A DNA stretch of 64,000 nt from an uncultured Acidobacteriota bacterium (GCA_963788645.1 CAWBHF010000021.1:3410-67409); one strand, 5' to 3'. Shown: positions 5,517 to 24,200, counted from the stretch's first letter. Numbers and translations: made by a program. The notes: a model not told the origin generated them from the letters alone.

Positions 5517-5538
5517 AAATCAACTGGAGGTCAGGCTG

Positions 5539-5985: not shown

Positions 5986-6068
5986 GGTTCAAAAGCGCGG
6001 CGTGGGAAAGACTGCCATCTGAGTCGATACGCCAGACTTGCCGCAGGGGGAGCACACTCGGGCCGAAA

Positions 6069-8990: not shown

Positions 8991-9716
8991 TTACTTCTTG
9001 TCTGCTTTGTCTTCCTTAGCTTCGGCGATACGTGCCTGTTGGCCCGCTTCAGACACGGCCTTCAAGAAGGCTTCCACACTTTTCGGAGTTGGCCCCTTGC
9101 CTGAAAGGATGGTTCGAAATTCAACATGCTTGCCGTAAATCGCGCGAGTCGAGTCGTTGTCCTGCTCCACAACAGCACCTTCCAGCGTCAAGCCGGCGAA
9201 TACGCCTTTTGAACGCGAGTAGGTCAGCACTTCCGTGTTCATCTTCCAGTCAGTCCCGGCGGACGCATGACGGCCCACTGGGCCTGCCGCACCCGATGCT
9301 TCACCGGTGAGTTCGAACTTGCTGGACAACAGATGCTGGAAACCCTGCTCATTCATGACCAGCATGATCAGATCCACGCCTTCGACGCCGATCTGCAATC
9401 CCCAGCTACCACCGCCAACGGACACGAAGGCGGGCGCGCTCCAACCGGTCGATGTACGGCACGAGGCCACTCCGCGGCCGTGCTTGGCGCCAAAAATGAA
9501 GCCACCTTTAATCAAGTTCGGCACCACGAGGATGCACTTGGCGTCGTTCAGCACTTCTTCGGGAATACCCTTGTCCGGGGTCGACATAATCTCGCTAATA
9601 ACGTCCACCGACTTTTGCATACGCTCAACCGTATCGTCACGATTCGAGTCTGCAAATGCATAAGTTCCAACCAAACCCATCAAGCTCATCAGCAGCAGTG
9701 AAATTGTCTTTTTCAT
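8991..9716 (-). CDS. Lipid-binding SYLF (Ysc84/DUF500) domain protein, exported
   Basis: 241 aa with a signal peptide. AKCILVVPNLIKGGFIFGAKHGRGVASCR...GWSAPAFVSVGGGSWGLQIG...DLIMLVMN...GVFAGLTLEGAVV is characteristic of SYLF. Confidence 0.85.
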   Translation of the reverse strand: MKKTISLLLMSLMGLVGTYAFADSNRDDTVERMQKSVDVISEIMSTPDKGIPEEVLNDAKCILVVPNLIKGGFIFGAKHGRGVASCRTSTGWSAPAFVSVGGGSWGLQIGVEGVDLIMLVMNEQGFQHLLSSKFELTGEASGAAGPVGRHASAGTDWKMNTEVLTYSRSKGVFAGLTLEGAVVEQDNDSTRAIYGKHVEFRTILSGKGPTPKSVEAFLKAVSEAGQQARIAEAKEDKADKK

Positions 9717-10123
9717 GAATTCATTCCTTTAAGAGTTGCGGATCTAAGAAAGAGAACTTCAGATGGGCTGACTTAGCTCAGAGAACCTGAAAGAGAGAGA
9801 GAAAGTGCTCGTCTCTGGTTTTATGATCGCCCAGGTCCGAAACAATAGCTGATCTGAATTGCTCACTTTGGATTTTGCAGCCCAATCCCAAGATCGGCTT
9901 GACTGTCACCTTGCGGACGGACAGCTTTGGTGTAAGTTGAGCAATCTTGCACAGAATCGCTGCCCTGGATGTGTCATCGTGAGCCTGTCGAAAACGCGAA
10001 AGAGAAGGCCCCATCTTGCATGCTTTTCTGGTCCATCTTCGTACCTTGCGAGCCTTCCTTGCTGACTCGCTGGAGAACCTCTTGTCGACGAAAACATCCC
10101 GCGGCGAAGTCGGACCCGCGAGG

Positions 10124-10234
10124 ATGTGCCCGTTCTGCGGGTTAATCACTCCACGGTCCAAGCCATTCTGTTTGGAGTGCGGAAAGTCGTTCAGGGGAGC
10201 TCAACTGGCGCGGAGAGACGCAAGGCAAGGATAA
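10124..10234 (+). CDS. Possible 36-aa zinc-ribbon peptide
   Basis: Internal ATG of ORF 10016-10234: MCPFCGLITPRSKPFCLECGKSFRG... (two CxxC pairs). There is no clear RBS. Confidence 0.3.
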   Translation: MCPFCGLITPRSKPFCLECGKSFRGAQLARRDARQG

Positions 10235-10263
10235 ATTCGACAAATGAACCGAGGGAGATAAAT

Positions 10264-10410
10264 ATGCTTTGGACGATTTTCGTAGTGATTCTGATTCTAT
10301 GGCTTCTAGGTTTCAGCCTACACGTGGCCGGTGGTCTGATTCACCTGCTACTGGTTGTGGCATTGGTGGTCTTAGTCATTAACCTGATGAGCGGCCGCCG
10401 TATAGCGTGA
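10264..10410 (+). CDS. lmo0937-family small membrane protein
   Basis: MLWTIFVVILILWLLGFSLHVAGGLIHLLLVVALVVLVINLMSGRRIA. The RBS GAGGGAG lies upstream. This is the 3' part of ORF 10126-10410. Confidence 0.85.
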   Translation: MLWTIFVVILILWLLGFSLHVAGGLIHLLLVVALVVLVINLMSGRRIA

Positions 10411-10521
10411 AGACGGCTCGTAGCATCTGCGAGGAGCCGCGTTCACGTGGAAGGTGCTTCTTCTGAGTTTGAAGTCCTTTTCTTGTGGGACCGATCTCGT
10501 TCCAGCGGCAATCTCGTGAGG

Positions 10522-10734
10522 CTACTGCTTTTGCCCAGCCTCACGTAGCAAGCTCAAGATGTGCCGCGCCCGAGCGATAGCGTCCCGCTCTCTTCCATGA
10601 TTGCTAGGCGGCTTTGACAAAATTCGCGATCGAATGAGAATCGCGGCCTCTGCTTCCTCAATTCGCTGCAGCGACCTGCTCCGGTCACTCGAGGACGGCA
10701 GCCCGGTACAGCTTTTCCCAATCTTGCCTGACAT
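10522..10734 (-). CDS. Small hypothetical protein; paralogue of 5262-5516
   Basis: 70 aa. SLQRIEEAEAAILIRSRIL...RERDAIARARHILSLL parallels SERIAEAETALVTRAREL...VDDAMYALHALRSAL. Confidence 0.45.
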   Translation of the reverse strand: MSGKIGKSCTGLPSSSDRSRSLQRIEEAEAAILIRSRILSKPPSNHGRERDAIARARHILSLLREAGQKQ

Positions 10735-10821
10735 AACGCGAAGACTGGGCGTGATCGGCGTGGTCCCAATGAACCGGGTGCATAATTTAACCTCCGCGCT
10801 GGGCCGGTACGACAGAATGAA

Positions 10822-11037
10822 TTACTTAGCGTCTTTGCTCTTCGTGCTCTCGCCTCTTGGGTGATGGGCGCAAACATGCGATTTAAATTCCCGGTCGCGC
10901 CGCAGCTCAAAGTTCCGGATCATTTCACCGAAAGACGCGCCGGGGGCAGGGCCAGAAGGGTTGAAGACCCAGGCGCATTCGGAGCAACCCCAACCTCGAA
11001 AATGCTCTTGTTCAATCCATACCAGCTCCCGATTCAT
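10822..11037 (-). CDS. Small conserved hypothetical protein with GWGCSEC motif
   Basis: 71 aa: MNRELVWIEQEHFRGWGCSECAWVFNPSGP...FELRRDREFKSHVCAHHP. It is protein-like and has Cys/His ligands. No RBS is seen. Confidence 0.5.
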   Translation of the reverse strand: MNRELVWIEQEHFRGWGCSECAWVFNPSGPAPGASFGEMIRNFELRRDREFKSHVCAHHPRGESTKSKDAK

Positions 11038-11508
11038 GGGCCGCAGTTTCGCTGCGCCACAGCGTTGCCTGGCCGCATGCCGAGTAGGCGCTTGCGGTCA
11101 AAGGACGCAGCGTTCTCCTTTCGCGTGGCGTACTGCCTCACTGCAGAAGAAAACCGTCACCCAGTCCGGGCGCGGCAGAAGCATAAAGGCACGGATTGTA
11201 CATGCGCCGAGTAGGATGGTCTGTCGGGCAGACTACACATCGATTGAAGATTTTCGTTATTGCGGCGCGCCGGATTTCAGGGATTCGTTCGAAGCAGCGG
11301 AACCGCTTAACTGTTGGTTCAGGTCTGGTACATCTTGAAGCGGTCCGTATTGCTCAGTATCAGGGTCGTATCCTGAGTAGTCTTTATAAGTCTTCGAAAG
11401 GGGTTTCACCATGCCCTGCGAGAGTCCTACCCGGTTTTGTGCAGCATGACAGGCGAGTTCATCCCGCACTGGAGGGCGGTTCTGATCCTCGTCTCTTAAG
11501 GACGGCTT

Positions 11509-12258
11509 ATGGAAAACAAAGGGCTCCAAGTCGTGCAGTCTGGCGAGCGGACGAATAGCGAAGGAAAACCAGTCAGCAATCTGATTCTTCTATCGCTCTC
11601 CGATAGTGACTACAGCTCACTGCGTCCTCATCTCGAATACGTCAGTTTGCCTAACCATCTGGTTCTTCACGAGGGGAGTGGAAAGGTGGAATTCGCGTAT
11701 TTCCCGAATCGAGGTTTGATTTCTCTTGTTGTCGTAATGAAAGACGGGAGGACCGCCGAAGCCGGCATAGTCGGCAATGAGGGCTTTATCGGAACCCCGG
11801 CGGCTGTTGGCTTGAGCAGGAGCCCGCTTCAAGCGGTGGTACAAATCACGGGGGACGGGTTTCGGGTAGAGGTTGCAGCTTTGCAAGACACGTTGGAATC
11901 CACTCCACCCCTGCAATTGATGTTGAGCCGCTATGCAGTGGTTCAGGGAATGCAGGTTGCACAAACAGCCGCGTGTAATCGGCTGCACGATATTCAGCAA
12001 CGCCTTGCACGGTGGTTGCTAATGACACAAGACAGAGTGGATTCAGAGTCGCTGCCGATTACCCATGACTTTCTCGCAACCATGCTAGGGACAGATAGGC
12101 CTACCGTGAGCTTGGCAGCTGGTGCTTTGCAGAAGAAGAAGCTCATCGCGTACGCCCGTGGCGCGGTGAAGATCGTGAACCGCAAGAAACTTGAAGACTC
12201 CGCCTGCGAGTGCTACGGGATTACCCAACAGTACAACGGCGAGCTGGGATTGAAATAA
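11509..12258 (+). CDS. Crp/Fnr-family transcriptional regulator
   Basis: 249 aa. It has a cNMP-binding-like beta-barrel (VLHEGSGKVEFAYFPNRGLISLVVVMKDGRTAEAGIVGNEGFIG) and a C-terminal HTH (ITHDFLATMLGTDRPTVSLAAGALQKKKLI). Confidence 0.9.
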   Translation: MENKGLQVVQSGERTNSEGKPVSNLILLSLSDSDYSSLRPHLEYVSLPNHLVLHEGSGKVEFAYFPNRGLISLVVVMKDGRTAEAGIVGNEGFIGTPAAVGLSRSPLQAVVQITGDGFRVEVAALQDTLESTPPLQLMLSRYAVVQGMQVAQTAACNRLHDIQQRLARWLLMTQDRVDSESLPITHDFLATMLGTDRPTVSLAAGALQKKKLIAYARGAVKIVNRKKLEDSACECYGITQQYNGELGLK

Positions 12259-12383
12259 GTCCGCAGCTGAAGCCACCACCAATAAAACTCTACGTGCACC
12301 CTGTGGTTCGGCGGAGTCACAGAGCATCGCTTCTGGTCACGAACCGTGCCACTCTCGACCGCGATTTTCTTCAAAAGCAAAAG

Positions 12384-12399
12384 TGTGCACTTTTGAACA
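12384..12399 (+). promoter_or_regulatory. Box 1 of a 16-bp inverted repeat (TGTGCACTTTTGAACA), a Crp/Fnr-type operator candidate
   Basis: Fits TGT-N10-ACA. Exactly 21 nt later comes TATTAT (12421-12426). The geometry matches a class II activator site centred near -41.5. Confidence 0.5.
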
Positions 12400-12429
12400 G
12401 TCGTTCTGCTTTTGCCAATGTATTATTCG

Positions 12430-12562
12430 ACCCGTTCGACAGAGCAGTCATGGGTTGGTGTCGATTGACAGTGTCGACGTCGGACCCTCACGACGGCTCT
12501 ACTTTCTGTCCCCAAACGCGCGCGTCATCAGGCCGGACTCCCAAAGTCCGGCCCTTTTCTTC
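12430..12562 (+). ncRNA. Candidate small RNA, copy 1 (ends approximate)
   Basis: Lies downstream of the box 1 promoter and ends in the hairpin GGCCGGAC-TCCCAAA-GTCCGGCC (12531-12553) followed by CTTTTCTT. It is homologous to 15338-15474. The only shared ATG is not followed by a conserved ORF. Confidence 0.5.
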
Positions 12563-12714
12563 GGTTTGATGCTGCTTTCAGCTACCTGCTTACAAAACGG
12601 AAATCCTGAATTAGCGAATGTGATCAATACTGCGCAGACCGTGACGTATGCGCTTGTATAGAGTGCCGAGTGAACGTTGCACACTCAGGAATCAAAACGA
12701 AGAAGGGACAATCT

Positions 12715-13470
12715 ATGAAACTGCTTACGATTTCTTTGCTGGCTCTGTCGTTGTCGGGAATCGGCGCTTATGCCCAAACAGATATGGACGCTGTGAAGAT
12801 CACTCTTGGGACCGCGGACAAATTTGCGTTGCTGGGTGGCTCCGGCATCACCAACGTCAGCGCCCACACCTTCATAATCGGCGACGTTGGCAGCGCTCCG
12901 ACGCCCACAGTGAAAGGAATCAAGCCGTCCCAGGTGAAGGGCCAGCTATTCCTCAAGTCCAGTTCGGTAACGGCTGCGGCTCAGAGGGGTCTCACAACGG
13001 CATACAATGAAGCCGCGGGCGCGTCTTGTGGCACAGTCCTTACCGGCGTGAATCTGGGCGGAAAGAAGCTCATTCCCGGGGTTTACTGCTTTGCGACAGC
13101 CGCGCAATTGACTGGCACTCTGAAGCTGGACGCTCAGGGGAATTCCAACGCGCAATGGATCTTCCAGATCGGCACCACGCTGACCACCGCACCGAATTCC
13201 AAAGTTGTCGTGAATCTCGGCGGCAAGGGCGCAAGAGGATGCAATGTGTACTGGCAGGTTGGTTCCTCGGCGACGGTCGGAAAGGGTAGCATTTTCGTAG
13301 GAAAGATGATGGCCCTTACCAGCGTCACGCTGAACGGGGGCGTCCTTCGAGGCAAGGCACTGGCACGCAACGGTGCGATCTCAATTTCTGCCCAGGAGAC
13401 GGTTGACGGTCCTCCGTGTGGTAATGTGAGTGCCGCGGATAATGACGATATGGCTGCCTTAGAGAACTAA
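12715..13470 (+). CDS. Ice-binding-like (DUF3494) family secreted protein
   Basis: ORF 12670-13470; the Met at 12715 starts the signal peptide MKLLTISLLALSLSGIGAYAQ. Diagnostic segments are ADKFALLGGSGITNV...IGDVGS...LTTAYNEA...LGGKKLIPGVYCF...LTGTLKLDAQGNSNAQWIFQIGTTLTT...NVYWQVGSSATVG. Confidence 0.85.
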   Translation: MKLLTISLLALSLSGIGAYAQTDMDAVKITLGTADKFALLGGSGITNVSAHTFIIGDVGSAPTPTVKGIKPSQVKGQLFLKSSSVTAAAQRGLTTAYNEAAGASCGTVLTGVNLGGKKLIPGVYCFATAAQLTGTLKLDAQGNSNAQWIFQIGTTLTTAPNSKVVVNLGGKGARGCNVYWQVGSSATVGKGSIFVGKMMALTSVTLNGGVLRGKALARNGAISISAQETVDGPPCGNVSAADNDDMAALEN

Positions 13471-13519
13471 GGCGATTGATTATCAGTTTGGGCTGCCGCT
13501 CATCGGAGTGGGCTGTCGG

Positions 13520-14047
13520 TCAGAATTGAATAATCCCATCCCTAATGCTACTCCACACTCTCGGGGAATAATGTGCGTTCGTTTTGTCAATTTCGAGTAG
13601 AGGAGCATTGGCCGACGGCCGCCCATTCCCTGCCCGTGATCTGCCGTTGCGACGGAAGTGCACCGGAGCGCGCAGCTTTTCTGGTTGGCTCAGGGATGGC
13701 TTTACGTTCAGCACGAAGTGTAGGGTCGCCAGCAGGAAGTGAGCCCCATCTGACTTGGTCACGAGCGCGTCAACTGACCTGAAGGCATCATCCGGAACAT
13801 CACTATTCTCGGCAAGCATCACGATCGGGACCTGGGGGTTGACCTGCTTGATCTCAGCCGCGACGACCGATCCATCCGAGAGGCCCGGGTGATACTCGAT
13901 CACGATTGCATCCACCGGACGCGACATGAAAAGCTGCAGGCCATCGCGACCGTTGGTCGCGGTTACCAGCTCATACCCATTTTCCCGCAACAAATTGAGT
14001 TGGGCCGGCTCTGGGTGAATGCAGAGGACAGTGTTGTTGCTAGCCAT
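13520..14047 (-). CDS. Receiver-like (pseudo-receiver) domain protein
   Basis: 175 aa with a REC-like fold pattern. The acidic pocket reads CIHPEP instead of DD, and the phospho-acceptor position reads VDAIVIEYHPG (Glu instead of Asp). The conserved Lys is retained (ALVTKSDG). Confidence 0.7.
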   Translation of the reverse strand: MASNNTVLCIHPEPAQLNLLRENGYELVTATNGRDGLQLFMSRPVDAIVIEYHPGLSDGSVVAAEIKQVNPQVPIVMLAENSDVPDDAFRSVDALVTKSDGAHFLLATLHFVLNVKPSLSQPEKLRAPVHFRRNGRSRAGNGRPSANAPLLEIDKTNAHYSPRVWSSIRDGIIQF

Positions 14048-14132
14048 GTCGGTTAGGTATACAGGCCAGGCCGCACGCGGTTCTGTTCACAATTGCTCAT
14101 ATCTCGCAAAGCGATGCTGGTCAGACCTCGCA

Positions 14133-14360
14133 TCAGCCTCTCGACGTTCCCGCACGCGCACCGGCAATGGTAAGCGCAATCCCGCCGGCAATCAGCACCG
14201 CGCTGATGATTGGCGACACGCGTTCACTGTGACTGGTTTGCACGCCGATGTTCACATCGCCAGCTTTGATGCCATGCGTCTCGGTTTGGGGAACGGGCAC
14301 GATCAGGGATGCAATACCTAGGACAACCACGAGCAACCCGGCGAATAGCAGGATTTTCAT
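14133..14360 (-). CDS. Small two-TM membrane protein (DUF3185-like)
   Basis: ORF 14133-14375; the Met at 14360 gives MKILLFAGLLVVVLGIASLIVPVPQTETHGIKAGDVNIGV...ISAVLIAGGIALTIAG. Confidence 0.6.
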   Translation of the reverse strand: MKILLFAGLLVVVLGIASLIVPVPQTETHGIKAGDVNIGVQTSHSERVSPIISAVLIAGGIALTIAGARAGTSRG

Positions 14361-14383
14361 AAATGGTTCCTTCACAGCAGTAA

Positions 14384-15235
14384 TTACGCCGCTGACTTCC
14401 GCATGGCTTTCATGTAGCTGTCCATTGACTGGGTCAACTGGGCGTCCACCTCGTCCGCGATTGTCATGACGTCAGGTAACACCAGGCTGAAGTCCAGAGA
14501 TTCCAGATTGATCTGCAATGTTCCGAAGATCGTCACCTGGAGTATTCGCGATTCATGCACCAGCATCGCTGGAGTGTAGCCTTGCAGATATCGCAGCTTT
14601 CCATGAGCCACGGCCGCGGCGGAAAAGACAGCATCGCTGTCCTTGTCCGTCGCCCGGGGCTTGCCCAGGCGGAGCGCCAGGTCTTCAACCAGCTTGGGAA
14701 GATGTCCCGTGCGATCTTCATCGCTAAGCGAAATGCGGTTGAGTTCACTGCTCTGTTTTGCCCGCTTCAACCAGGTCTGAACGATTCCGGCACTGCACCG
14801 CAGCAGGATCGCGCCCACGCTCTCCTTGTCCACTCGTTTACCGGGTTTGCGATGTACCACCTTCTCTCGGACCAGATCGATGAACCGCCCGATTTCGAAT
14901 GGCTTTACGACGATTTCGTCCGCCTCTAATAGGATGGCTGCCATTGCGCTTTGCACGTCAGGGTAGCCGCTGACCAGCATGGTCAACGCATTCGGTTGGG
15001 AGTGGCGCATGGCTGAGACTACAGTAAATCCGTCGCCCGGGTTGGGCATGTGGAGGTCCGTGATGAGCACGTCAAAACTCTCAGTCGCGATTCTTCTCAG
15101 AGCTTCTGTCACGCTGGAGGCAGCAACTACTTCAAATCCCTTGCGTTCAAGCCCTTGGCTCATCATCGCAAGTACCGCGCTATCGTCATCTACCAGCAGC
15201 ACTCTATGCGCAGTGGGTGGATCGGTCGAAGTCAT
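14384..15235 (-). CDS. Response regulator (REC domain) with an uncharacterised C-terminal domain
   Basis: 283 aa. RVLLVDDDSAVL...FDVLITDLHMPNPGDGF...TMLVSGYPD...IVVKPF is a canonical receiver. The C-terminal ~150 aa have no recognised DNA-binding motif. Confidence 0.9.
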   Translation of the reverse strand: MTSTDPPTAHRVLLVDDDSAVLAMMSQGLERKGFEVVAASSVTEALRRIATESFDVLITDLHMPNPGDGFTVVSAMRHSQPNALTMLVSGYPDVQSAMAAILLEADEIVVKPFEIGRFIDLVREKVVHRKPGKRVDKESVGAILLRCSAGIVQTWLKRAKQSSELNRISLSDEDRTGHLPKLVEDLALRLGKPRATDKDSDAVFSAAAVAHGKLRYLQGYTPAMLVHESRILQVTIFGTLQINLESLDFSLVLPDVMTIADEVDAQLTQSMDSYMKAMRKSAA

Positions 15236-15291
15236 AGAGCACGCCTCTGGTCACGGATAGTGCCAGTCTAAAAGATCTTTGTTTTCAAAAC

Positions 15292-15307
15292 TGTGCAATT
15301 TTGAACA
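15292..15307 (+). promoter_or_regulatory. Box 2 of the 16-bp inverted repeat (TGTGCAATTTTGAACA)
   Basis: The arms TGTGCAA / TTGAACA are near-palindromic. 21 nt later comes TACCAT (15329-15334). Confidence 0.5.
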
Positions 15308-15337
15308 GTCGTCCTATTTTGGGCAACGTACCATTCC

Positions 15338-15474
15338 GCATGTTCGATCGAGCGGTCATGGGTTAGTGTCGGATCAATAGTGGCGACGTTCGGACCCTCA
15401 CGACTGCTCTACTTTCTGTACCCTGAACGCACGTTTGTTGTCAGGCCGGGCCTCCCTCAGGTCCGGCTTTTTTG
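15338..15474 (+). ncRNA. Candidate small RNA, copy 2 (ends approximate)
   Basis: Homologous to 12430-12562. It ends in GCCGGGCC-TCCCTCA-GGTCCGGC (15445-15467) followed by TTTTTT. The next gene is convergent, so this cannot be a 5' leader. Confidence 0.55.
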
Positions 15475-15571
15475 AGAACTCAACGCGACCCCGCCGTCCG
15501 ACACTGACGGCGTCAAGCCGACTTCGCCTCTCGAAGTTCAGATCGTACGTCTCAATGGAAGTATGCGAGAG

Positions 15572-16255
15572 CTAGTCGTGGAGAACAACGTTGAGCAGTG
15601 AACTGTGGACTTGCAATCCGCCTTCAATACCGCCGGCGTATTGAATGAAACCCAGTTTTCTGAATCGATTCATGAAAAAGCTAACCCGCGAACGCGTGGT
15701 TCCAACCATGTCTGCCAGCGTTTCCTGACTTATCTTGGGGACGACGGTCTCGGGCACACCTTCCTTGCCAAAATGAGCCAGCAATAGGAGAACGCGGGCC
15801 AGTCGTTTTTCACTAGAATTGAACAATTGATCAACCAGATCTTCTTCATAGCGGATGTTCCGCGACAGCAAATACGCCACGAACATATCGGAAAACGCAT
15901 GTTCGCGATGGAGGGCTTCCATCATTGCCTTCTTGTCGATACGCAGAAGCGCGCAATCGGTCATTGCAGCCGCGGAACCCATGCGCAGCGCCTGGCCTGC
16001 CAGCGCACCCTCCCCAAAGAAGTTTCCCTCACTCAGCATTCCTATGGTAGCTTCTCGGCCGGTCTGGGATACGACGGTGAGCTTCACCTTGCCGGCCTGG
16101 ATGTAGAAGACGGCGTCCGCCCCATCTCCCTGGGCGAAGATCGTTTGCTTCTTGCCGACAGCCACATTTTTCCTGCCATCGCCAATCGTTGCGAGAAAGG
16201 TGGTGGGATCGAACTCTCGCCTATTCTTGCCGTTCGTTGCTTTAGGAGGGCTCAT
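15572..16255 (-). CDS. Crp/Fnr-family transcriptional regulator
   Basis: 227 aa. IFAQGDGADAVFYIQAGKVKLTVVSQTGREATIGMLSEGNFFGEGAL is the cNMP-binding part. ISQETLADMVGTTRSRVSFFMNRFRKLGFI is the HTH. Confidence 0.9.
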   Translation of the reverse strand: MSPPKATNGKNRREFDPTTFLATIGDGRKNVAVGKKQTIFAQGDGADAVFYIQAGKVKLTVVSQTGREATIGMLSEGNFFGEGALAGQALRMGSAAAMTDCALLRIDKKAMMEALHREHAFSDMFVAYLLSRNIRYEEDLVDQLFNSSEKRLARVLLLLAHFGKEGVPETVVPKISQETLADMVGTTRSRVSFFMNRFRKLGFIQYAGGIEGGLQVHSSLLNVVLHD

Positions 16256-16419
16256 GTTAGTCGTAATTCTAGTCCAAAGGAACCGTTAATTGGCATAAAT
16301 CGTGCCTAAAGCCAGAGGCAATCTCTTTTTGGTCCGGGGTTCCAAAGTGAGCCATTCTGCTCAGTATTTCGCGAACAGATGGACGATTCTCAAGAGTTCG
16401 GGATCAAGTGGAGGCTTCT

Positions 16420-16851
16420 ATGGCACACGAAGTTCAAGTCGGAACGATTCTGATTAAGGAAAATCCGGGCATGGCGCAGGCGATTGGGTTCCAAAGTGAG
16501 CCCTACTCATCCAACTGGGGAGTAGTCAAGACGCTCGATGGCTTGGCTCTCGATCGCGAGATCCATGCCGCGGGATGGAACTTCTTCTTCATGGCTGCAC
16601 AGGTGAAGGTAACGTTCTTCGGTGCAATCGAGACGAAGAGTATCCAGAACGCGGTGGGGCGAATATTGGGAAAACTGAAGCCAATGAATTTTAATTGTCT
16701 TGAGGTCACCGGAATCGTAGCCAAACGATTTCTGGGTGTGCCGTATACAGTCATTTCGGCGCATTCGCGCCATATCCAACAAGGTTGCTGCCTCGACGGC
16801 GTCGATGAACGAGGGCGATTTCACTACGATCCCGAGCAAGCCCGAGGTTGA
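16420..16851 (+). CDS. Hypothetical protein
   Basis: ORF 16408-16851; the ATG at 16420 lies 6 nt after GTGGAGG. No recognisable domain. Confidence 0.55.
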   Translation: MAHEVQVGTILIKENPGMAQAIGFQSEPYSSNWGVVKTLDGLALDREIHAAGWNFFFMAAQVKVTFFGAIETKSIQNAVGRILGKLKPMNFNCLEVTGIVAKRFLGVPYTVISAHSRHIQQGCCLDGVDERGRFHYDPEQARG

Positions 16852-16947
16852 GCGTGTTCTGCGCTCTGGCACTTCCGTTCATGAAACTTAACCGGAATCT
16901 AGACTTCGACCCGACTCCTTGAAGGGCGACCCGGAAGAGAACTCCAG

Positions 16948-17088
16948 TTACTTTTCCGCACGCGCCAGACGCCGATCTCTATGCGGATCTGTGCGGGGTT
17001 GGCCAGTGCTGAGTTCACACTTTTCTCCTGGCTTCGCTCCGCAAGTAGGACAACGAACCGCGAGGGCTCGCTTACATTTGGCTGTCAT
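16948..17088 (-). CDS. Possible 46-aa zinc-ribbon-like basic peptide (not in the ORF track)
   Basis: Codon-by-codon translation gives MTAKCKRALAVRCPTCGAKPGEKCELSTGQPRTDPHRDRRLARAEK. No RBS. Confidence 0.3.
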   Translation of the reverse strand: MTAKCKRALAVRCPTCGAKPGEKCELSTGQPRTDPHRDRRLARAEK

Positions 17089-17121
17089 GGCTACATAATG
17101 CAACCGCGCTCGGCAACAAGA

Positions 17122-17137
17122 TGTGCAATTTTGATCA
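17122..17137 (+). promoter_or_regulatory. Box 3 of the 16-bp inverted repeat (TGTGCAATTTTGATCA)
   Basis: 21 nt later comes TATTCT (17159-17164). It lies upstream of the 17384 gene, with a ~210-nt leader. Confidence 0.45.
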
Positions 17138-17383
17138 GTTCATTCATTTCAGCCTCGCTATTCTTGTAGCTCCGTATCAGTTAAGTCCGTCCGCGAAATC
17201 GTTGTGAGCGTTATTGACCAGACGTGACGAGCCGCGAAGTGAGAATGTCATAGCAGAACTGTTTGCGAGCGAGACAAAACTTGCACTACGTTTCGTTCGG
17301 CAATCGCGCCTCTCCATCCACGCAACCCGCAGCAGCAGAGCATCACCGGGCAAGCCAAGGATGACCAGGCAAAAGGAAGCACA

Positions 17384-18547
17384 ATGCGTTTCATCCCTTC
17401 TATTCGTTCGTTGTTGTTCGCGCTCGTAATGCTAGCCGTCTCGGCTGCGGCGTTCGCGCAAATCGGCATATCCATTACCATCGCCCCTCCAGCGCTGCCC
17501 GTGTATGAGCAGCCACCCCTCCCCGCGCAGGGCTATATCTGGACACCTGGCTACTGGGCCTACAGCCAGGGCGATTATTACTGGGTGCCAGGCACGTGGG
17601 TGATGGCCCCGCAAGTCGGCTTCCTCTGGACTCCGGGCTATTGGGGTTGGAACAATGGCGGATACGCTTTCAATGAAGGCTACTGGGGTCCTCACGTGGG
17701 TTTCTATGGCGGAATCAATTATGGCTACGGCTATACCGGTGAAGGTTACCAGGGCGGGCGCTGGGACCACGGGCAGTTTGCCTACAACCGTTCGGTGAAC
17801 AACGTGAATGTCACCAACATTCACAACACCTATAACACCACAGTGATCAACAATACGACCGTAAACCGGGTGAGCTACAACGGCGGCAACGGGGGACTCA
17901 CTGCCCGTCCCAACTCGGAACAAGAGGCTGCAGCGCACGAGAAACATATCGCGCCGGTCGCGGTTCAGACTCAACATGCCCAGGCTGCACGCGCGAACCC
18001 GCAGCAGCGGGCTTCCGTGAACCAGGGCAAGCCGGCCATCGCAGCTACTCCCAAACCGGGAGCATTTAGCGCCGGCGTACCGGCCAAGGAAGCAGGAGCG
18101 CCGTATAAACCTGAAGGCAAGAGTGCGGTCGCTCAGCCCTCGGCAAAGACGCCACCTGCTCGGTCGGCGAACAACGTTCCTCGACCTGGCACTGCGGAGC
18201 GCAGTACTCCAGAACCGAGCAATGAAGCGCCTCGTCCAACGACTGCACCGGAGAAGGCAACTGCGCCGCGTCCGGAGAACACGCCGCGTCCGGTAGAGAA
18301 CGCCTCTCGGAATGAAAGCAAGCCTCAACCGCAAGGCGCTCCACACCCAGAAGCCGCTCCTCGTCCAGAGACCGCTTCGCGTCCGGAGAATGCTCCTCAT
18401 CCAGAAGCCGCGGCCAAGCCCGAGAATACGCCGCGTGCTGAAGGCCAGGCTCATCCGGAGGCTGCTCCCAGGGCTGAAGCCCGTCCAGAGAATGCTCCTA
18501 AGCCAGAAAAAGAGGCTGCTCCAGAAGAACGGCGACAACAGCAGTAA
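17384..18547 (+). CDS. Secreted YXWGXW-repeat protein with a Pro/Glu/Ala-rich low-complexity C-terminal half
   Basis: 387 aa with a signal peptide. GYIWTPGYWAYSQGDYYWVPGTWVMAP..GFLWTPGYWGWNNGGYAFNEGYWG are WxxGxW-type repeats. The C-terminus carries degenerate PENAPxPEAA repeats. Confidence 0.85.
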   Translation: MRFIPSIRSLLFALVMLAVSAAAFAQIGISITIAPPALPVYEQPPLPAQGYIWTPGYWAYSQGDYYWVPGTWVMAPQVGFLWTPGYWGWNNGGYAFNEGYWGPHVGFYGGINYGYGYTGEGYQGGRWDHGQFAYNRSVNNVNVTNIHNTYNTTVINNTTVNRVSYNGGNGGLTARPNSEQEAAAHEKHIAPVAVQTQHAQAARANPQQRASVNQGKPAIAATPKPGAFSAGVPAKEAGAPYKPEGKSAVAQPSAKTPPARSANNVPRPGTAERSTPEPSNEAPRPTTAPEKATAPRPENTPRPVENASRNESKPQPQGAPHPEAAPRPETASRPENAPHPEAAAKPENTPRAEGQAHPEAAPRAEARPENAPKPEKEAAPEERRQQQ

Positions 18548-18567
18548 ACCCGACTGCTTCCATGAGA

Positions 18568-18593
18568 CGGCTCGCAGCACATGCTGCGAGCCG
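18568..18593. terminator. Perfect 11-bp stem hairpin between convergent genes (bidirectional terminator candidate)
   Basis: CGGCTCGCAGC-ACAT-GCTGCGAGCCG. There is no clean U-run on either side. Confidence 0.45.
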
Positions 18594-18640
18594 CTCTGTT
18601 GCGGATACTGGCGTTTGTTCCTAGACTCAGGTTCCCGCGA

Positions 18641-20212
18641 TTATTGCAATGCCAAGCGCATCGCTTTTCCCTGGCGCTCAAAGTTGATCTGCAGCATTGC
18701 TGGATGATCCCTGGTGAAACTCCCCAAGATAGACGCTGACTGTTCGTACTTGTCAGGTGTGGAACGCACCCGAACAAGGATGCGGTGTTTACCTGAAGGC
18801 AGCCGGACTGTTTCGGTTTCCCGGACATCCATTCGAAATGGATCCCAGTGCTTCTTGATCTGACCGCGCAATGGGCGATCGTAAGTCAACTTGCCGTCGA
18901 TCCATAGCGAAAGGTCTGCCGCAGAGAAGCGATGTTCAATGCGTATGTTCAGCGTGGAATCTGCAACCGCTTTAGAGAGTTCCTTGGAACTGGGCAATTT
19001 TTCTGCGCTGTGGTCGATGGCATTACTCAACATCGGAGCCGGTGTCCCACTCGCGCCCACCATTGCCGATGGACCGGCCTGACTTGAATTTCGCGACAGC
19101 AGATTTTTGTGATACGCAAAGAAGCTGAGAACGATCGTCGCAACCGAGAACACGAGCCCGATGCGTACCGCCGGCCGCCGCCACCAGGACAGGAGCTGCC
19201 GCCGAGTGAATGCTGGTGCTTGTCTCGCCGCGAGCCTCAACACTTGGAAGAGGCCAATTAGTGCAAAGTTCGCTGAGGGAAGGTGAATCGTAACGTCGCC
19301 GGGTGACCGAGCGAGGACTTCTCTCGCTCCCGCGAACCGCGATGCACCAGTGGCACCTTTTGAGATTGTCTGGCCGCGCTCGCGAAGCTCACGCAGATCG
19401 AGAGCAAATTCCAATCCACGCTGGTAACGTTGCGCCGGATCCTTCGCCATAGCTCTAGCGATTACGAAATCCAGTTCAGGGGGAAGGTCGGGGTCAAACG
19501 CGGTTGCCCGGAGGGGCTCGCGGTTGGCGACCTTAAAGCAGACGGTGGTAGCACTGTTACCTTGGAAAGGGCCGTAGCCAGTCACCATGTGGTAGAGAAT
19601 CGCACCTAACGAAAATAGGTCGGAGCGTTTGTCCACTGGCTCACCCTCCAACTGTTCCGGCGACATGTACGCCGGTGTGCCCAGCGCCCGGCCGGGAATC
19701 GTGAGACGCGCGAGGTTCACTTTCGCAATACCGAAATCTGCGATCTTGCCATGGCCGTCGGGCGTCACGAGGATGTTGGCAGGTTTCATGTCACGATGCA
19801 CGACGCCTTGCCCGTGAGCGTGATCCAGCGCCTCCGCAAGTTCTTCCGACAACCGAAGAGCTGTATCGATCGATAGTTTCTTGCTTTTTTCTGAAAGGAG
19901 TCGGTCCAGCGATTGGCCCGGAATGAACTCCATAACAATGAAGGCAATGTGGCTTTCTGGGTCCTCGCCGGTATCGAAGATGGTGACAATGCCGGGATGT
20001 AGCAAACGACCGGCCGCCTGAGCCTCGTGAAAGAACCGCTCCCGGTATTCGCGTTCCTCCTCTGGATTCTGACCGGAGAGCGAGATCGTTTTGACAGCAA
20101 CAAACCGGTCGATTTTGGGATCACGAGCCTTATACACCACTCCCATAGCGCCGCGCCCGACCTCAGCAATGACCTCGTATCGTCCGAAACATCTACCCCA
20201 GCGAGTTTCCAT
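18641..20212 (-). CDS. Ser/Thr protein kinase with a TM segment and an extracytoplasmic C-terminal domain
   Basis: 523 aa. It shows GRGAMGVVYKA, VAVK, HRDMKPANIL, DFGIA and GTPAYMSPE. A hydrophobic segment VRIGLVFSVATIVLSFFAY follows. Confidence 0.95.
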   Translation of the reverse strand: METRWGRCFGRYEVIAEVGRGAMGVVYKARDPKIDRFVAVKTISLSGQNPEEEREYRERFFHEAQAAGRLLHPGIVTIFDTGEDPESHIAFIVMEFIPGQSLDRLLSEKSKKLSIDTALRLSEELAEALDHAHGQGVVHRDMKPANILVTPDGHGKIADFGIAKVNLARLTIPGRALGTPAYMSPEQLEGEPVDKRSDLFSLGAILYHMVTGYGPFQGNSATTVCFKVANREPLRATAFDPDLPPELDFVIARAMAKDPAQRYQRGLEFALDLRELRERGQTISKGATGASRFAGAREVLARSPGDVTIHLPSANFALIGLFQVLRLAARQAPAFTRRQLLSWWRRPAVRIGLVFSVATIVLSFFAYHKNLLSRNSSQAGPSAMVGASGTPAPMLSNAIDHSAEKLPSSKELSKAVADSTLNIRIEHRFSAADLSLWIDGKLTYDRPLRGQIKKHWDPFRMDVRETETVRLPSGKHRILVRVRSTPDKYEQSASILGSFTRDHPAMLQINFERQGKAMRLALQ

Positions 20213-20383
20213 TTGGATCGCAGATTCTTGGTCTGCCAGAAAACACCCGACGCTAGTTTAGGGTTTCGTCCCCAAGAAAGAGTGTTCGTCACAATACCAG
20301 CATGGTTACGGTGGTAATCGTTTCTCGAACCGATGGTCATTGCGGATCCCCAGAGCGCTCGGATTCCCCACTCGAGGCATATG

Positions 20384-20399
20384 TGGTCAATTTTGACCA
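20384..20399 (+). promoter_or_regulatory. Box 4 of the 16-bp inverted repeat (TGGTCAATTTTGACCA; perfect 7-2-7 palindrome)
   Basis: 21 nt later comes GAATAC/AATACT (20421-20427). It lies upstream of the GT4-GH130 operon. Confidence 0.45.
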
Positions 20400-20562
20400 G
20401 TTCTCAACTCCACTTCCGTTGAATACTGAGAGAGGCAAACTCTACTGATGGACGAAATCACGCGCCGGTAACCGATGACGTCCGACCGAGTCGGGTGGCA
20501 CGTCAGGTTTATCGGGACTCTGACGTTATTTCAGCAGCCTTTCTCGGCAGATTTAGGAGCTC

Positions 20563-22968
20563 ATGTCGCTAGCGAACACAGTGCTCCCCAAGGGAATGTT
20601 AGACGTCGTCGGGCCGCGCCCCGTGGTACGGGAGAAAATTTCCGCAACCCGACGGCGATCGCAATCAAAACCATCTTTGCCTAGCCGTATCGCAGTAATT
20701 GGGAACTATCTGCCCCGACAGTGCGGAATTGCTACGTTTACCACCGACTTATGCGCGGCCATATCCGCCGAGTACGGGATCGCTCGATTGTTGGCGCTAC
20801 CCGTAAACGACACCGAACAAGGATATGACTATCCTGCGCGCGTGAGATGGTCGCTCGCCCAGGACGACTTGAAATCGTATGAAGAGGCCGCTGCGTTCCT
20901 AAACTTCAACAATATCGACATGGTCTGCCTACAGCACGAATATGGGATTTTCGGCGGACCCGCGGGCAGCCACATCTTGCAGCTGTTGCGTGGCCTGAAG
21001 ATGCCGGTTGTGACCACTCTGCACACTGTCCTCCGCGAGCCTAATCCTGACCAGCTTGCGGTCATGGAGGAGATCGCAGAGCTTTCGGATCGCCTCATTG
21101 TCATGAGCCAGCTCTCATCCCAGTTCTTGCAAGAAATCTTCAAAGTGCCCGGCAGCAAGATCGACATGGTTCCTCACGGCGTTCCCGACCTGCCATTCCT
21201 CGATCCCAATTTCTACAAGGACCGCTTCGGCGTGGAGGGGAAAGCCGTGCTACTCACATTCGGCCTGCTCTCACCAAACAAGGGAATCGAAAACGTCATT
21301 CAAGCACTGCCGCAAATTTTGTCCAGGCACAAGAATGTTGTGTACGTGGTCGCGGGCGCAACCCACCCTCACATTCTCCGCCGCGAGGGCGACTTGTATC
21401 GAGATCATTTGCGAACCTTGGCGAAGGAAGTGGGAGTGGAGGCGAATGTTATCTTCCACAACCGATTCGTCAGCCCAGATGAGATGGTCGAGTTCATTGG
21501 CGCCGCAGACATTTATATCACTCCCTACCGCCATGAGGCGCAGGTGGTTTCCGGAACGCTTGCTTATGCACTGGGTGCGGGCAAGGCAATCATTTCAACG
21601 CCGTACTGGCACGCGATCGAGTTGCTGGATGACCGCCGCGGCGCGCTGGTTCCCTTCCAGGATCCTGATGCTATCGCAAGGAAAACGGTCGAGCTTTTGG
21701 ATACTCCAGCGATACGCCACGCTATGCGTAAACGTGCTTATTTGTTCGCGCGCGAGATGGTCTGGAAAAGAGTGGCGCAGGGCTACATGGAAAGTTTTAT
21801 ACATGTCCGCAGCGACCGCATGGAGAGTCCACAAGTGCGGTTCTCCGCCCGCATTGCACAAAAAACATTGAATCAGCTGCCGAAGCTGAAGCTGAAGCAC
21901 TTCGACAGGCTGACGGATGACACCGGAATGCTGCAGCACGCAATCTTCACCATCCCCAACTACGCAGAGGGATACACCGCCGACGACAATGCTCGGGCAC
22001 TCATTTTCGCAGTACTGCTCGAGCAACTGGGTAACGGACAGTACCGTAATTCCACCCCAGATCCGTCCTTCCGATATTTGGCGTTTTTGCAACACGCGTT
22101 CGATGCAGAGAGAGGCAGATTCAGAAACTTTCTCGGCTACGATCGCCGGTGGAACGAAGCTGCGGGCTCTGAGGATTGTCATGGGCGCGCTCTATGGGGG
22201 CTGGGAACGGTTCTAGGCCGCTCCAAAAATCAGGGGTTGAGGTGTGCTGCCGGGCGTTTGTTCGAGCTCTCCCTTCCCGCGGTAATGGAATTCAATAGTC
22301 CTCGCGCCTGGGCCTACGCACTGCTCGGGATTCAGGAATATCTCGATTCGTATCCAGGAGATCGGGACGCGCAGAAAATAAGATCGGTTCTCAGCACGCG
22401 GTTGCTTGAAATGTACCGCTCCGTCCAAACATCGGATTGGAAGTGGTTCGAAAACATTCTGGCCTACGGAAACGCGAGATTGCCGCAAGCGCTGCTGCTC
22501 GTGGGCTCTGCCTGCTCAAATGATCGTATGGTATCCGCTGGCCTGGAAGCACTGGATTGGCTCCTGAAAACGCAGCATTGCGAAGCCAACGGCCACTTTG
22601 TGCCAATCGGATCGGACGGCTTCTATCGCTACGACGGTGAAAAGGCCCGTTTCGATCAGCAGCCGCTCGAGGCAGCCGGCGCGGTCTCAGCCTGTTTGCA
22701 AGCCTACCGTGTAACCGGGAATGCGCGCTGGCGCAATGAGGCTTGGTCGGCCTTCAACTGGTTTCTTGGTGACAACGATCTGCAACTTCCTCTTTATGAT
22801 TCCGTCACCGGCGGTTGCCGAGACGGCTTGCACCCTGACCGAGCCAACGAAAACCAGGGAGCAGAATCTACACTATCGTTCCTGATGGCACTGCTCGAAA
22901 TGAGCTCACTGCCAGAACCTGATAGTTCGGGAACAAGCGGTGAGTTACTTGTTGCTTCCACCAAATAG
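20563..22968 (+). CDS. Family 4 glycosyltransferase fused to a ~380-aa C-terminal domain of unknown function
   Basis: 801 aa. The N-terminal half has GT-B/GT4 features (IGNYLPRQCGIATFT..., VVAGATHP..., ADIYITPY..., E-x7-E region). The C-terminal half is unrecognised. The RBS is TAGGAG. Confidence 0.85.
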   Translation: MSLANTVLPKGMLDVVGPRPVVREKISATRRRSQSKPSLPSRIAVIGNYLPRQCGIATFTTDLCAAISAEYGIARLLALPVNDTEQGYDYPARVRWSLAQDDLKSYEEAAAFLNFNNIDMVCLQHEYGIFGGPAGSHILQLLRGLKMPVVTTLHTVLREPNPDQLAVMEEIAELSDRLIVMSQLSSQFLQEIFKVPGSKIDMVPHGVPDLPFLDPNFYKDRFGVEGKAVLLTFGLLSPNKGIENVIQALPQILSRHKNVVYVVAGATHPHILRREGDLYRDHLRTLAKEVGVEANVIFHNRFVSPDEMVEFIGAADIYITPYRHEAQVVSGTLAYALGAGKAIISTPYWHAIELLDDRRGALVPFQDPDAIARKTVELLDTPAIRHAMRKRAYLFAREMVWKRVAQGYMESFIHVRSDRMESPQVRFSARIAQKTLNQLPKLKLKHFDRLTDDTGMLQHAIFTIPNYAEGYTADDNARALIFAVLLEQLGNGQYRNSTPDPSFRYLAFLQHAFDAERGRFRNFLGYDRRWNEAAGSEDCHGRALWGLGTVLGRSKNQGLRCAAGRLFELSLPAVMEFNSPRAWAYALLGIQEYLDSYPGDRDAQKIRSVLSTRLLEMYRSVQTSDWKWFENILAYGNARLPQALLLVGSACSNDRMVSAGLEALDWLLKTQHCEANGHFVPIGSDGFYRYDGEKARFDQQPLEAAGAVSACLQAYRVTGNARWRNEAWSAFNWFLGDNDLQLPLYDSVTGGCRDGLHPDRANENQGAESTLSFLMALLEMSSLPEPDSSGTSGELLVASTK

Positions 22969-22998
22969 GCTTTGATTAGGACCACTGAGCGAACACCT

Positions 22999-23982
22999 AT
23001 GAGCGTTGCCACAACAATTCGTCACGAGCCGCTGCTTCTTCGGCACCCTGCCAACCCAATTTTGACGGCTAAGGACTGGCCATACTCCATTAATAGTGTG
23101 TTCAACGCGGGCGCGACCCTACTGGCCGATGGATCGACCCTCCTACTTTGCCGTGTCGAAGATCGACGGGGCTTGTCCCACCTTTGCGCCGCTCGCTCTC
23201 ACAACGGAGTGGACAATTGGCAAATTGATAAGGAACCGACCTTGATGCCAAGCCCCAAGGAGCATCCCGAAGAAATCTGGGGCATTGAGGATCCGCGTAT
23301 CACTTTCGTACCCGAGTTGCAGCAATACGTAGTCACCTACACCTCGTATTCGCGTGGCGGCCCCGGAGTGTCCCTGGCTCTCACCAAAGACTTCCGCAGT
23401 TTCGAACGGTATGGGGTCATCATGCCACCTGATGATAAAGACTCAGCGTTGCTGCCTCGGAGAATTGATGGATGCTGGGCCCTTATTCATCGGCCGATGA
23501 CGCCGCTGGGTTCGCACATGTGGATTTCCTACTCTCCTGACCTGCGTTATTGGGGCAGGCACAGGCTCATGCTCGAGGCGCGCCGCGGCGCCTGGTGGGA
23601 TGCAAACAAGATTGGTTTGTCGCCGCCGCCCATCGAGACTTCCAGAGGCTGGCTGGTGTTCTATCACGGAGTGCGACACACGCCTTCGGGCTGTCTGTAT
23701 CGATTGGGCTTGGCGCTGTTTGACCTTGAGAATCCGGCAAAGTGCCTATTGCGAGGAGATTCGTGGATCTTTGGGCCAGAAGCTGACTACGAGCGTCACG
23801 GCGACGTCGATGATGTTGTGTTCCCCTGTGGATACACGATCGACGCCGATGGTGACACCATGAATCTTTACTACGGAGCCGCCGACTGCTCGATCGCTCT
23901 CGCACGAACGAGCGTTCGCTCTCTACTCGATTGGCTGGATGCCAATGGAAGTTCCGAGCGGAGACGAGCGCAGGACTTATGA
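22999..23982 (+). CDS. Glycoside hydrolase family 130 (glycosidase/mannoside-phosphorylase-like) protein, cytoplasmic type
   Basis: ORF 22972-23982 has a TTG start; I prefer the ATG at 22999. Diagnostic segments are NPILTAKDWPY..SVFNAGATLL...WGIEDPRITFVPELQQYVVTYTSYS...LALTKDF...DKDSALLPRRIDGCWALIHRP. Confidence 0.85.
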   Translation: MSVATTIRHEPLLLRHPANPILTAKDWPYSINSVFNAGATLLADGSTLLLCRVEDRRGLSHLCAARSHNGVDNWQIDKEPTLMPSPKEHPEEIWGIEDPRITFVPELQQYVVTYTSYSRGGPGVSLALTKDFRSFERYGVIMPPDDKDSALLPRRIDGCWALIHRPMTPLGSHMWISYSPDLRYWGRHRLMLEARRGAWWDANKIGLSPPPIETSRGWLVFYHGVRHTPSGCLYRLGLALFDLENPAKCLLRGDSWIFGPEADYERHGDVDDVVFPCGYTIDADGDTMNLYYGAADCSIALARTSVRSLLDWLDANGSSERRRAQDL

Positions 23983-24200
23983 AACCACTGCTTTGGATCT
24001 TGCACTCGGCGTTTGGGTGCCATCACCAGGAAATGAGTCGCGTGTTCACCATCAAGAAAAGAACCTACCGCGTCTGCTTCCAATGTGGGCAAGAATTCGA
24101 GTATTCCTGGGCTTCGATGCATCCGGTACGGTTGAGTGCTCCCGTCAACCGTTGTGCACTACTAGATCAGGCTGGCCGAGCCGAGGTCGCCGCGACTTGA
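23979..24200 (+). CDS. Small Cys/His-containing hypothetical protein, translationally coupled to the GH130 gene
   Basis: The ATG at 23979 overlaps the GH130 stop (ATGA). The product is MKPLLWILHSAFGCHHQEMSRVFTIKKRTYRVCFQCGQEFEYSW... Confidence 0.5.
   Translation: MKPLLWILHSAFGCHHQEMSRVFTIKKRTYRVCFQCGQEFEYSWASMHPVRLSAPVNRCALLDQAGRAEVAAT

Follow-up and report, generated by a model that had tools for sequence, protein, structure and literature searches.

A 64,000-nucleotide (nt) stretch of DNA from an uncultured Acidobacteriota bacterium (GCA_963788645.1 CAWBHF010000021.1:3410-67409; hereafter the window), whose source is a metagenome-assembled Terriglobales genome, carries at least ten copies of a 16-bp palindrome (box), and these repeated palindromes are real and conserved across Terriglobales, which are among the most abundant soil bacteria. 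The boxes are probably class II activator sites of CrpA, a Crp/Fnr-family protein encoded in their midst. Sequence statistics show the motif itself, how enriched and how conserved it is, its fixed geometry and its grouping round crpA; from these we infer CrpA as the binder, activation as the effect and the predicted start codons as the transcription starts. The literature search returned no Crp or other transcription-factor regulon, promoter architecture, transcription start map or small RNA (sRNA) described for Acidobacteria or Terriglobales, and Acidobacteria were not mentioned in the CRP/FNR survey papers examined.

The boxes were investigated in a comparison set of 80 loci (L004-L083; 1.4 Mb in total) obtained from one scan of species-representative genomes, each locus comprising a CrpA orthologue with up to 10 kb on either side and each belonging to a different Terriglobales species. 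The skeleton TG..CA....TG..CA occurred 241 times in these loci against about 24 times in shuffled sequences, and 78% of the matches were intergenic, compared with about 20% of the searched sequence by the same crude gene calls, in line with the intergenic sites reported in a preliminary description of the window. An iterated symmetric position weight matrix (PWM) seeded with this skeleton yielded the consensus TGnKCAAWWTTGMnCA, with the dyad axis between the two W. Sites scoring at least 14 bits numbered 384 in the 80 loci against 5-8 in shuffles (about 50-fold enrichment); at least one was present in 75 of the 80 loci, with a median of five per locus. The information content of the PWM was equal in both dyad halves: G2 was 100% conserved, position 4 was G or T, and C5 and A6 were invariant, while the central four bases were variable (ATTT, CAAT, CTTT, ATCT, ATAT and others). 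The AATTTT core formerly taken as the motif is only the commonest of several A/T-rich cores.

Within the window, the same threshold (14 bits on the cross-species PWM) retained 10 sites against a mean of 0.47 in first-order Markov simulations. All ten lie within 14.5 kb (9850-24257), and no PWM box of 14 bits or more was found in the other 49.5 kb. The four 16-mers of the preliminary description (12384, 15292, 17122 and 20384, plus strand) are all present at these positions, the last one being indeed a perfect 7-2-7 palindrome, but they are four of at least ten boxes, and for several of these boxes a minus-strand promoter is predicted in addition to the plus-strand reading. Each of the four is followed, as had been reported, by GT and then by a -10-like hexamer at 21 nt (for the fourth, GAATAC at 21 nt or AATACT at 22 nt). 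A search of the window with the degenerate pattern of that description, allowing up to two mismatches, gave six matches against 0.63 expected, a number reached in none of 100 shuffles. The boxes and their predicted -10 hexamers, together with one weaker element, are the following:

9850-9865, minus strand: box TGAGCAATTCAGATCA (minus-strand reading), PWM score 17.5 bits; 21 nt, then -10 GATCAT (9823-9828).
9938-9953, plus strand: box TGAGCAATCTTGCACA, 21.1 bits; 21 nt, then -10 CATCGT (9975-9980).
11341-11356, plus strand: weak half-box CGGTCCGTATTGCTCA, tentative and degenerate, 12.8 bits; 21 nt, then TAGTCT (11378-11383); upstream of crpB, which encodes a second Crp/Fnr-family protein.
12384-12399, plus strand: box 1, TGTGCACTTTTGAACA; 21 nt, then -10 TATTAT (12421-12426); predicted promoter of sRNA-like gene 1.
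12621-12636, plus strand: box TGATCAATACTGCGCA, 20.1 bits; -10 TAGAGT (12659-12664).
14084-14099, minus strand: box TGAGCAATTGTGAACA; 22 nt, then -10 TATACC (14056-14061), 8 nt and ATG 14047.
15292-15307, both strands: box 2, TGTGCAATTTTGAACA, bidirectional; plus strand, 21 nt, then -10 TACCAT (15329-15334); minus strand, -10 TAGACT (15265-15270).
16348-16363, both strands: box TGAGCCATTCTGCTCA in a divergent intergenic region, 16.6 bits; minus strand, GAGATT (16320-16325); plus strand, GATTCT (16385-16390).
17122-17137, both strands: box 3, TGTGCAATTTTGATCA, bidirectional; minus strand, 21 nt, then CATTAT (17095-17100); plus strand, 21 nt, then TATTCT (17159-17164).
20384-20399, plus strand: box 4, TGGTCAATTTTGACCA; -10 AATACT (20422-20427) at 22 nt, or GAATAC at 21 nt.
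24242-24257, plus strand: box TGAGCTATCTTGCTCA, 17.1 bits; 21 nt, then CATTCT (24279-24284).

The promoter geometry was read from 70 nt on both sides of every site of the comparison set. A hexamer of the form nANNNT stood exactly 21 nt past the box in 289 of 766 site-orientations and 22 nt past it in 114, against about 40 at other offsets; these hexamers were mostly of the CATnnT type (CATTCT, GATCAT, AATACT, CATCAT, CATTAT). With distances of 20-22 nt taken together, a hexamer was found on at least one side of 355 of 391 sites (both sides of 76, one side of 279, neither side of 36). Beyond the hexamer, the start codons of open reading frames (ORFs) of at least 40 amino acids (aa) peaked at 6 nt (49 cases) and 7 nt (13 cases), giving 62 predicted leaderless genes, and this peak was absent in site-orientations lacking a -10. 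For a leaderless mRNA, the first base would be expected at just this distance of 6-7 nt past the hexamer. If the start codon is taken as +1, the hexamer spans -12 to -7, the box -49 to -34, and the dyad centre falls at -41.5 (by sequence rather than by a mapped start), which would be the canonical class II CRP/FNR position. At a spacing of 16-18 nt, the best match to the -35 sequence TTGACA had at most two of six bases in 329 of 433 promoters, and a generic sigma-70 promoter scan detected none of the box promoters, as expected if the -35 is absent. The two features of class II promoters that are visible in sequence, an activator site near -41.5 over the -35 position and a weak or absent -35, are both found here. 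Box-anchored phylogenetic footprints of the promoters of the genes for a GT4 glycosyltransferase, a 46-aa zinc-ribbon protein (zn46) and a Ysc84-domain protein showed the box and the -10 as conserved blocks. The Crp/Fnr-type regulon with its box at a class II position, as first proposed from four sites, is supported as a prediction by the roughly 50-fold enrichment, the mostly intergenic placement, the density peak ahead of crpA, the fixed spacing, the start codons of the predicted leaderless genes and the lack of a -35.

Taken together, the symmetry of the site, its fixed and stereospecific distance to the -10, the missing -35 and the use of both sides favour a dimeric activator over a sigma element or a simple repressor. 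It is very improbable that the box is itself a core promoter element (-35-like or UP-like) for an alternative or unusual housekeeping sigma factor: its right half (TTGACC or TTGAAC) resembles TTGACA with a spacer of 22-24, and its distance to the -10 is fixed, but a spacing of 22-24 nt is outside the range of the sigma-70 family, the dyad halves are equally conserved, the 76 sites with a -10 in both directions are inexplicable by an asymmetric sigma element, and the sites cluster round one regulator gene instead of being spread over all promoters. Repressor operators, at which CrpA or another factor would block RNA polymerase at the -35 region, are also quite unlikely, even though the box overlaps the would-be -35 position and Crp/Fnr proteins can repress. 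These promoters have no -35 to occlude and should be weak without a helper, and the strict 21-22 nt spacing in more than 10 unrelated operons and 80 species speaks for a stereospecific contact with RNA polymerase, of which occlusion has no need; the use of one site by divergent promoters, each at -41.5, likewise fits activation.

Both of the Crp/Fnr paralogues announced for this part of the window were recovered:

15572-16255, minus strand: crpA, Crp/Fnr-family protein of 227 aa with cNMP_binding and HTH_Crp_2 domains, the proposed regulator.
11509-12258, plus strand: crpB, second Crp/Fnr-family protein, 249 aa.

The two had been put forward together as candidate regulators, and only crpA is conserved with the boxes: an orthologue of CrpB is missing from most box-carrying loci, and CrpB was rejected as main candidate for lack of conservation. 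By its predicted domain content, CrpA is a member of the Crp/Fnr superfamily, with an N-terminal PF00027 cNMP_binding domain (E = 3.6e-19, 69 bits against a cut-off of 27.5) and a C-terminal PF13545 HTH_Crp_2 domain (E = 3.5e-11, 43 bits against a cut-off of 27). It was the sole helix-turn-helix (HTH) protein conserved in the box neighbourhoods, and it was represented by more than 100 database clusters at 85-94% identity, those bearing a source name being Terriglobales. An origin in Planctomycetes, which composition and the WXXGXW protein of the window had suggested, was rejected on the strength of these names. Sites were densest in the 500 nt ahead of crpA, with 1.6 per kb; their density was 0.4-0.7 per kb within 1-2.5 kb of the gene and about 0.03-0.26 per kb at 7-10 kb, and a box was found at most 400 nt upstream of crpA in 44 of 79 loci.

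The recognition helix of CrpA, GTTRSRVSFFMNRFR (TRSRVSF), was invariant in 81 of 81 sequences, the motif being likewise invariant. It was compared to the RETVGR helix of CAP via the alignment with Mycobacterium tuberculosis CRP, which is the closest solved structure to CrpA by sequence (E = 3e-16, 63 bits; residues 31-208 align). In CAP, R180 reads G2, and E181 and R185 read G4 (PMC10187061). The Arg equivalent to R180 is kept in CrpA, as is the fully conserved G2 in the box; Ser and Phe stand in place of E181 and R185, and the box is degenerate at position 4; a new Arg stands where CAP has T182, and the box has new invariant bases at C5 and A6. The residues of CrpA would thus be consistent with the CAP contact rules, as the kept and lost contacts match the kept and lost site positions.

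A metagenome scan with an ATTT-core box and a -10 at 21 nt returned 120 loci, of which about one fifth were low-GC chance matches and many carried crpA, Ysc84, GT4 or zn46 genes. On long contigs, clusters of three to five boxes were found by genes for REC-domain proteins, Ice_binding-like genes and other Crp-like paralogues, with crpA not in reach; the regulon is probably not confined to the crpA neighbourhood. On one of these contigs (Ga0070681_10008620, L156, positions 3400-7400), three Crp-like paralogues in tandem, with about 24% identity to CrpA, a REC gene and an Ice_binding-like gene are interspersed with four boxes, and two of the paralogues are the first ORF past a box, so the motif may be common to a paralogue family. 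Such contigs lend some weight to an unlikely reading in which the boxes are bound by another dimeric factor (CrpB, a paralogue of the L156 type or an unrelated regulator) and crpA is merely one target, which it would be whatever the binder, since it lies downstream of a box. In addition, zn46, the target conserved in the most loci, matches PF24623 Phage_zn_bind_8 (2.8e-10), a family of putative DNA-binding zinc fingers. Against this reading, CrpB is missing from most box-carrying loci, CrpA is the only HTH protein conserved with the boxes and its helix is as invariant as the motif, site density is highest at crpA, the base contacts of CrpA match those expected from the site, and a 46-aa monomeric zinc ribbon is unlikely to read a 16-bp dyad.

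Several points weigh against the assignment of the boxes to CrpA as class II sites. The loci were picked for carrying crpA, so that the co-occurrence of crpA and boxes is partly built in, and a specific link to crpA is indicated only by the fall in site density along the loci and by the 49.5 kb of the window that contain no box. Because TG..CA....TG..CA was the seed of the PWM, the invariant positions of the matrix are partly imposed. Sites 1 and 2 lie in a segmental duplication (described below) and represent one invention copied once, not independent observations. The box clusters without crpA in reach imply that the regulon is probably not confined to this island and that another paralogue could share the motif. 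The Terriglobales motif lacks the GT-N10-AC core of CRP sites, and CrpA is far below every named NCBIfam equivalog (best score 62 bits against a cut-off of 300; not CRP, FNR or NtcA), so that its specificity cannot be transferred by homology. The phosphate-binding cassette contains FGE and an Arg, this Arg being followed by M-G-S-A and not by Ser/Thr-Ala, and with such an atypical R-M-G-S-A cassette the binding of cyclic AMP or cyclic GMP by CrpA is uncertain. The phosphate-binding loop is presumably one residue shorter than that of CAP, going by our own reading of the CAP sequence. A scan of neighbouring genes revealed none for an adenylate cyclase.

In Escherichia coli, class II sites of CRP and FNR are centred at -41.5 in the model of Busby and Ebright, a distance of 22 bp from the core site to the second -10 base is exclusive to class II promoters, and the GT-N10-AC core is highly conserved among CRP proteins (PMC10187061). 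The Terriglobales system resembles this arrangement in the cyclic-nucleotide-type (cNMP-type) domain and C-terminal HTH of CrpA, the 16-bp dyad with outer TG...CA at the same positions, the 22 bp from site to second -10 base with the site in place of the -35, and the predicted autoregulation of the regulator gene. It differs from it in the motif (TGnKCAAWWTTGMnCA against TGTGA-N6-TCACA or TTGAT-N4-ATCAA), in the helix (TRSRVSF against RETVGR or E--SR) and in the many targets predicted to be leaderless. Compared with the CRP subfamily, CrpA has another helix and another site, and it scored 51 bits against a cut-off of 266 for the NCBIfam CRP equivalog; compared with the FNR subfamily, it has a single Cys (residue 101) and hence no FNR-type N-terminal Cys cluster for a [4Fe-4S] centre, and it scored 34 bits against a cut-off of 228 for NCBIfam Fnr.

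By analogy, the nearest described case of shifted specificity is the Crp-family regulator Clr of Sinorhizobium meliloti, with the consensus HGTYHC-N4-GRWACA and the helix RPKVNR (PMC10187061, PMC10127613). Both systems keep the outer G...C, have lost conservation at position 4, show inner C/G bases around a 4-bp spacer and have a changed helix. They differ in the helix itself, in the inner conserved bases, which are shifted by one position (6 and 11 in Clr, against 5-6 and 11-12, i.e. CA...TG, here) and in T3 and A14, which are conserved in Clr and variable in the Terriglobales motif. The CRP of M. tuberculosis (Rv3676; PDB 3h3u, 3mzh, 3d0s), the closest solved structure, keeps an RE-type helix and a CAP-like TGTGA site, and CrpA is only remotely similar to it. 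M. tuberculosis is a GC-rich bacterium of a soil lineage in which leaderless transcripts are common. Finally, TAP of Thermus thermophilus (TTHB099), a structural model of class II activation, is a Crp-family activator from a phylum outside the Proteobacteria that works from a class II position, as proposed for CrpA; the Thermus Crp-family chains 5i2d and 3b02 matched CrpA at about 1e-11, and CrpA differs from TAP in having a full-length cNMP-type domain.

Under the preferred assignment, a dimeric Crp/Fnr-family activator, for which CrpA is the best candidate, would use the boxes as operators. With the box at -49 to -34 and a -10 hexamer without a -35, the dimer at -41.5 would recruit or activate RNA polymerase in the manner of CRP/FNR at class II promoters. 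The symmetry of the site would let a single dimer act on two divergent promoters, as seems to be the case at many boxes. The box at 16348, ahead of crpA, would provide autoregulation, and the conserved regulon would include crpA, the multi-copy sRNA-like gene, zn46, a second zinc-ribbon gene, Ysc84, GT4-GH130 and genes for REC-domain and Ice_binding-like proteins. This mechanism is an expected variation on CRP/FNR class II activation, which extends a known principle and overturns none; what is added is a distinct predicted operator for a Crp-family regulator in an understudied phylum. A much more tentative proposal is that CrpA might represent a new DNA-specificity class (TG-N2-CAA-N2-TTG-N2-CA with an invariant R-S-R helix) and the autoregulated master switch of a compact Terriglobales-wide island, acting through divergent class II promoters from single sites in a stress or dormancy programme. 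The targets would then range from multi-copy sRNAs and leaderless genes for zinc-ribbon micro-proteins to REC-only regulators and genes with envelope or glycan functions.

The analysis offers a first testable regulon for the little-studied soil Acidobacteria of the Terriglobales. It provides a high-confidence operator motif, a promoter model (-10 CATnnT, no -35, frequent predicted leaderless starts) and a candidate master regulator with a distinct recognition helix, together with conserved targets, among them micro-proteins that lack annotation and a family of sRNA-like genes. The annotation of metagenome-assembled genomes benefits too, as the analysis flags a probably spurious gene and finds small genes and start codons missed by gene callers.

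For each promoter in its orientation, the first ORF past it was taken as the target, and these ORFs were clustered into families. At least 12 of the families recurred across loci, i.e. the same operator was found ahead of unrelated operons and at orthologous promoters across species, the most conserved target being zn46 (48 of 80 loci). The predicted targets and their representatives in the window are the following:

16948-17088, minus strand: zn46, predicted leaderless, from box 17122 (ATG 17088, 6 nt past CATTAT); 51 sites in 48 loci; every one has its start codon 6-7 nt past the hexamer.
8991-9716, minus strand: Ysc84-domain gene, from box 9850; orthologous box-gene pair in 41 loci.
15572-16255, minus strand: crpA itself, from box 16348; 31 sites in 28 loci.
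16408-16851, plus strand: hypothetical gene of 147 aa divergent from crpA, from box 16348; family of 144-aa proteins (hyp144) in 22 loci.
10016-10234, plus strand: zinc-ribbon gene of 72 aa, from box 9938; family of about 75 aa (zn77) in 23 loci, in which the box recurs with a tgtCATCGT -10.
20563-22968 and 22972-23982, plus strand: operon of GT4 glycosyltransferase, then GH130, from box 20384; 22 loci, with the box and GAATACT conserved.
14384-15235, minus strand: response-regulator gene with REC and RsbRD_N domains, from box 15292; REC-domain proteins at 18 sites.
13520-14047, minus strand: predicted leaderless REC-only gene, from box 14084; the box-TATACC-ATG layout recurs in other loci.
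12670 (GTG) or 12714 (ATG) to 13470, plus strand: Ice_binding-like gene, from box 12621; orthologous targets in 8 loci.
17384-18547, plus strand: WXXGXW gene, faced by hexamer TATTCT of box 17122.
24539-24733, plus strand: gene of a 64-aa membrane protein next to box 24242; same target in 3 loci.

The units named as served by the four original boxes were only partly retained. The two sRNA-like genes and the GT4-GH130 operon stand as predicted targets, with the response-regulator gene at 14384-15235 added on the minus strand of box 15292. The WXXGXW gene, named as the target of box 3, becomes a secondary reading because the conserved target of this box, zn46, is on the minus strand. The plus-strand hexamer at box 3 (TATTCT or CATTCT) is itself conserved and faces the WXXGXW gene, and this gene is a plausible second target of box 17122. 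In many genomes, a single box stands between divergent promoters of zn46 and GT4; in the window, the WXXGXW gene and a Ser/Thr kinase gene lie between zn46 and GT4, with a box of its own on each side. The half-box at 11341 ahead of crpB could reflect a cascade from CrpA to CrpB.

The sRNA-like genes of the window were located as follows:

12433-12560, plus strand: sRNA-like transcript 1, with a long 5' hairpin and an intrinsic terminator (12531-12553).
15341-15472, plus strand: sRNA-like transcript 2, downstream of box 2.

Members of the family are about 125 nt long and share a conserved long 5' hairpin with the core GGUCAUGGGU...ACCCUCACGACC, besides which they have an intrinsic terminator and a CUACUUUCUGU segment that is single-stranded; a few outer-helix pairs change on both sides (compensatory changes). 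No Rfam match was obtained for these genes, either at the gathering threshold over the whole window or with E up to 10 over 12380-12620. A profile search found 14 copies in 9 loci, with at most three per locus; copies outside the window were present in L016, L046 (3 copies), L007, L078, L083, L028, L073, L045 and L006. The box was placed 33 nt before the predicted 5' end of the RNA in 8 of 8 close copies, and a variant box, TGTATAAAAGTGAACA, was found in 4 of 6 distant copies, with ATACTT-like hexamers 21 nt further on.

Sites 1 and 2 are located inside a segmental duplication of about 330 bp, 81% identical, which carries the box, the -10, the sRNA-like gene of about 125 nt and the decayed 5' end of a neighbouring gene. 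At 12290-12360, the 5' remnant of the response-regulator gene has decayed, with ATG changed to GTG and the minus-strand -10 lost. Upstream of sites 1 and 2, a conserved TGGCAC-N5-GTGACC sequence had a sigma-54-like look; this candidate was rejected, as it corresponds to the 5' untranslated region or 5' end of the response-regulator gene and was co-duplicated.

The box at 9938 was first dismissed as intragenic. The overlapping minus-strand ORF (9778-10161), called as a gene of 123-127 aa in metagenome records, extends over the divergent promoter region, boxes 9850 and 9938 included, and over the beginning of the gene for the 72-aa zinc-ribbon protein. This ORF is probably spurious, since it has no family match and 23 loci retain box 9938 and its -10. 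Other genes of the window, namely a second GH130 (33966-35084, plus strand), a REC-PilZ gene (32483-33628, minus strand) and an Hsp20 gene (4684-5175, plus strand), had no box, and no tRNA genes were found in the window.

The zn46 ORF, with the protein MTAKCKRALAVRCPTCGAKPGEKCELSTG..., was too short for the 60-aa ORF listing. In the 5' region of the WXXGXW gene, a box-like element, TGAGCGTTATTGACCA (17205-17220, 12.0 bits), has a conserved matching stretch in L016 and may belong to a second promoter, closer to the gene, or act as an additional site of regulation. In one strain of the same species as the window (L003, 13180-15586), the GT4 gene was called in two pieces of 653 and 162 aa, pointing to a frameshift or a fault in the assembly.

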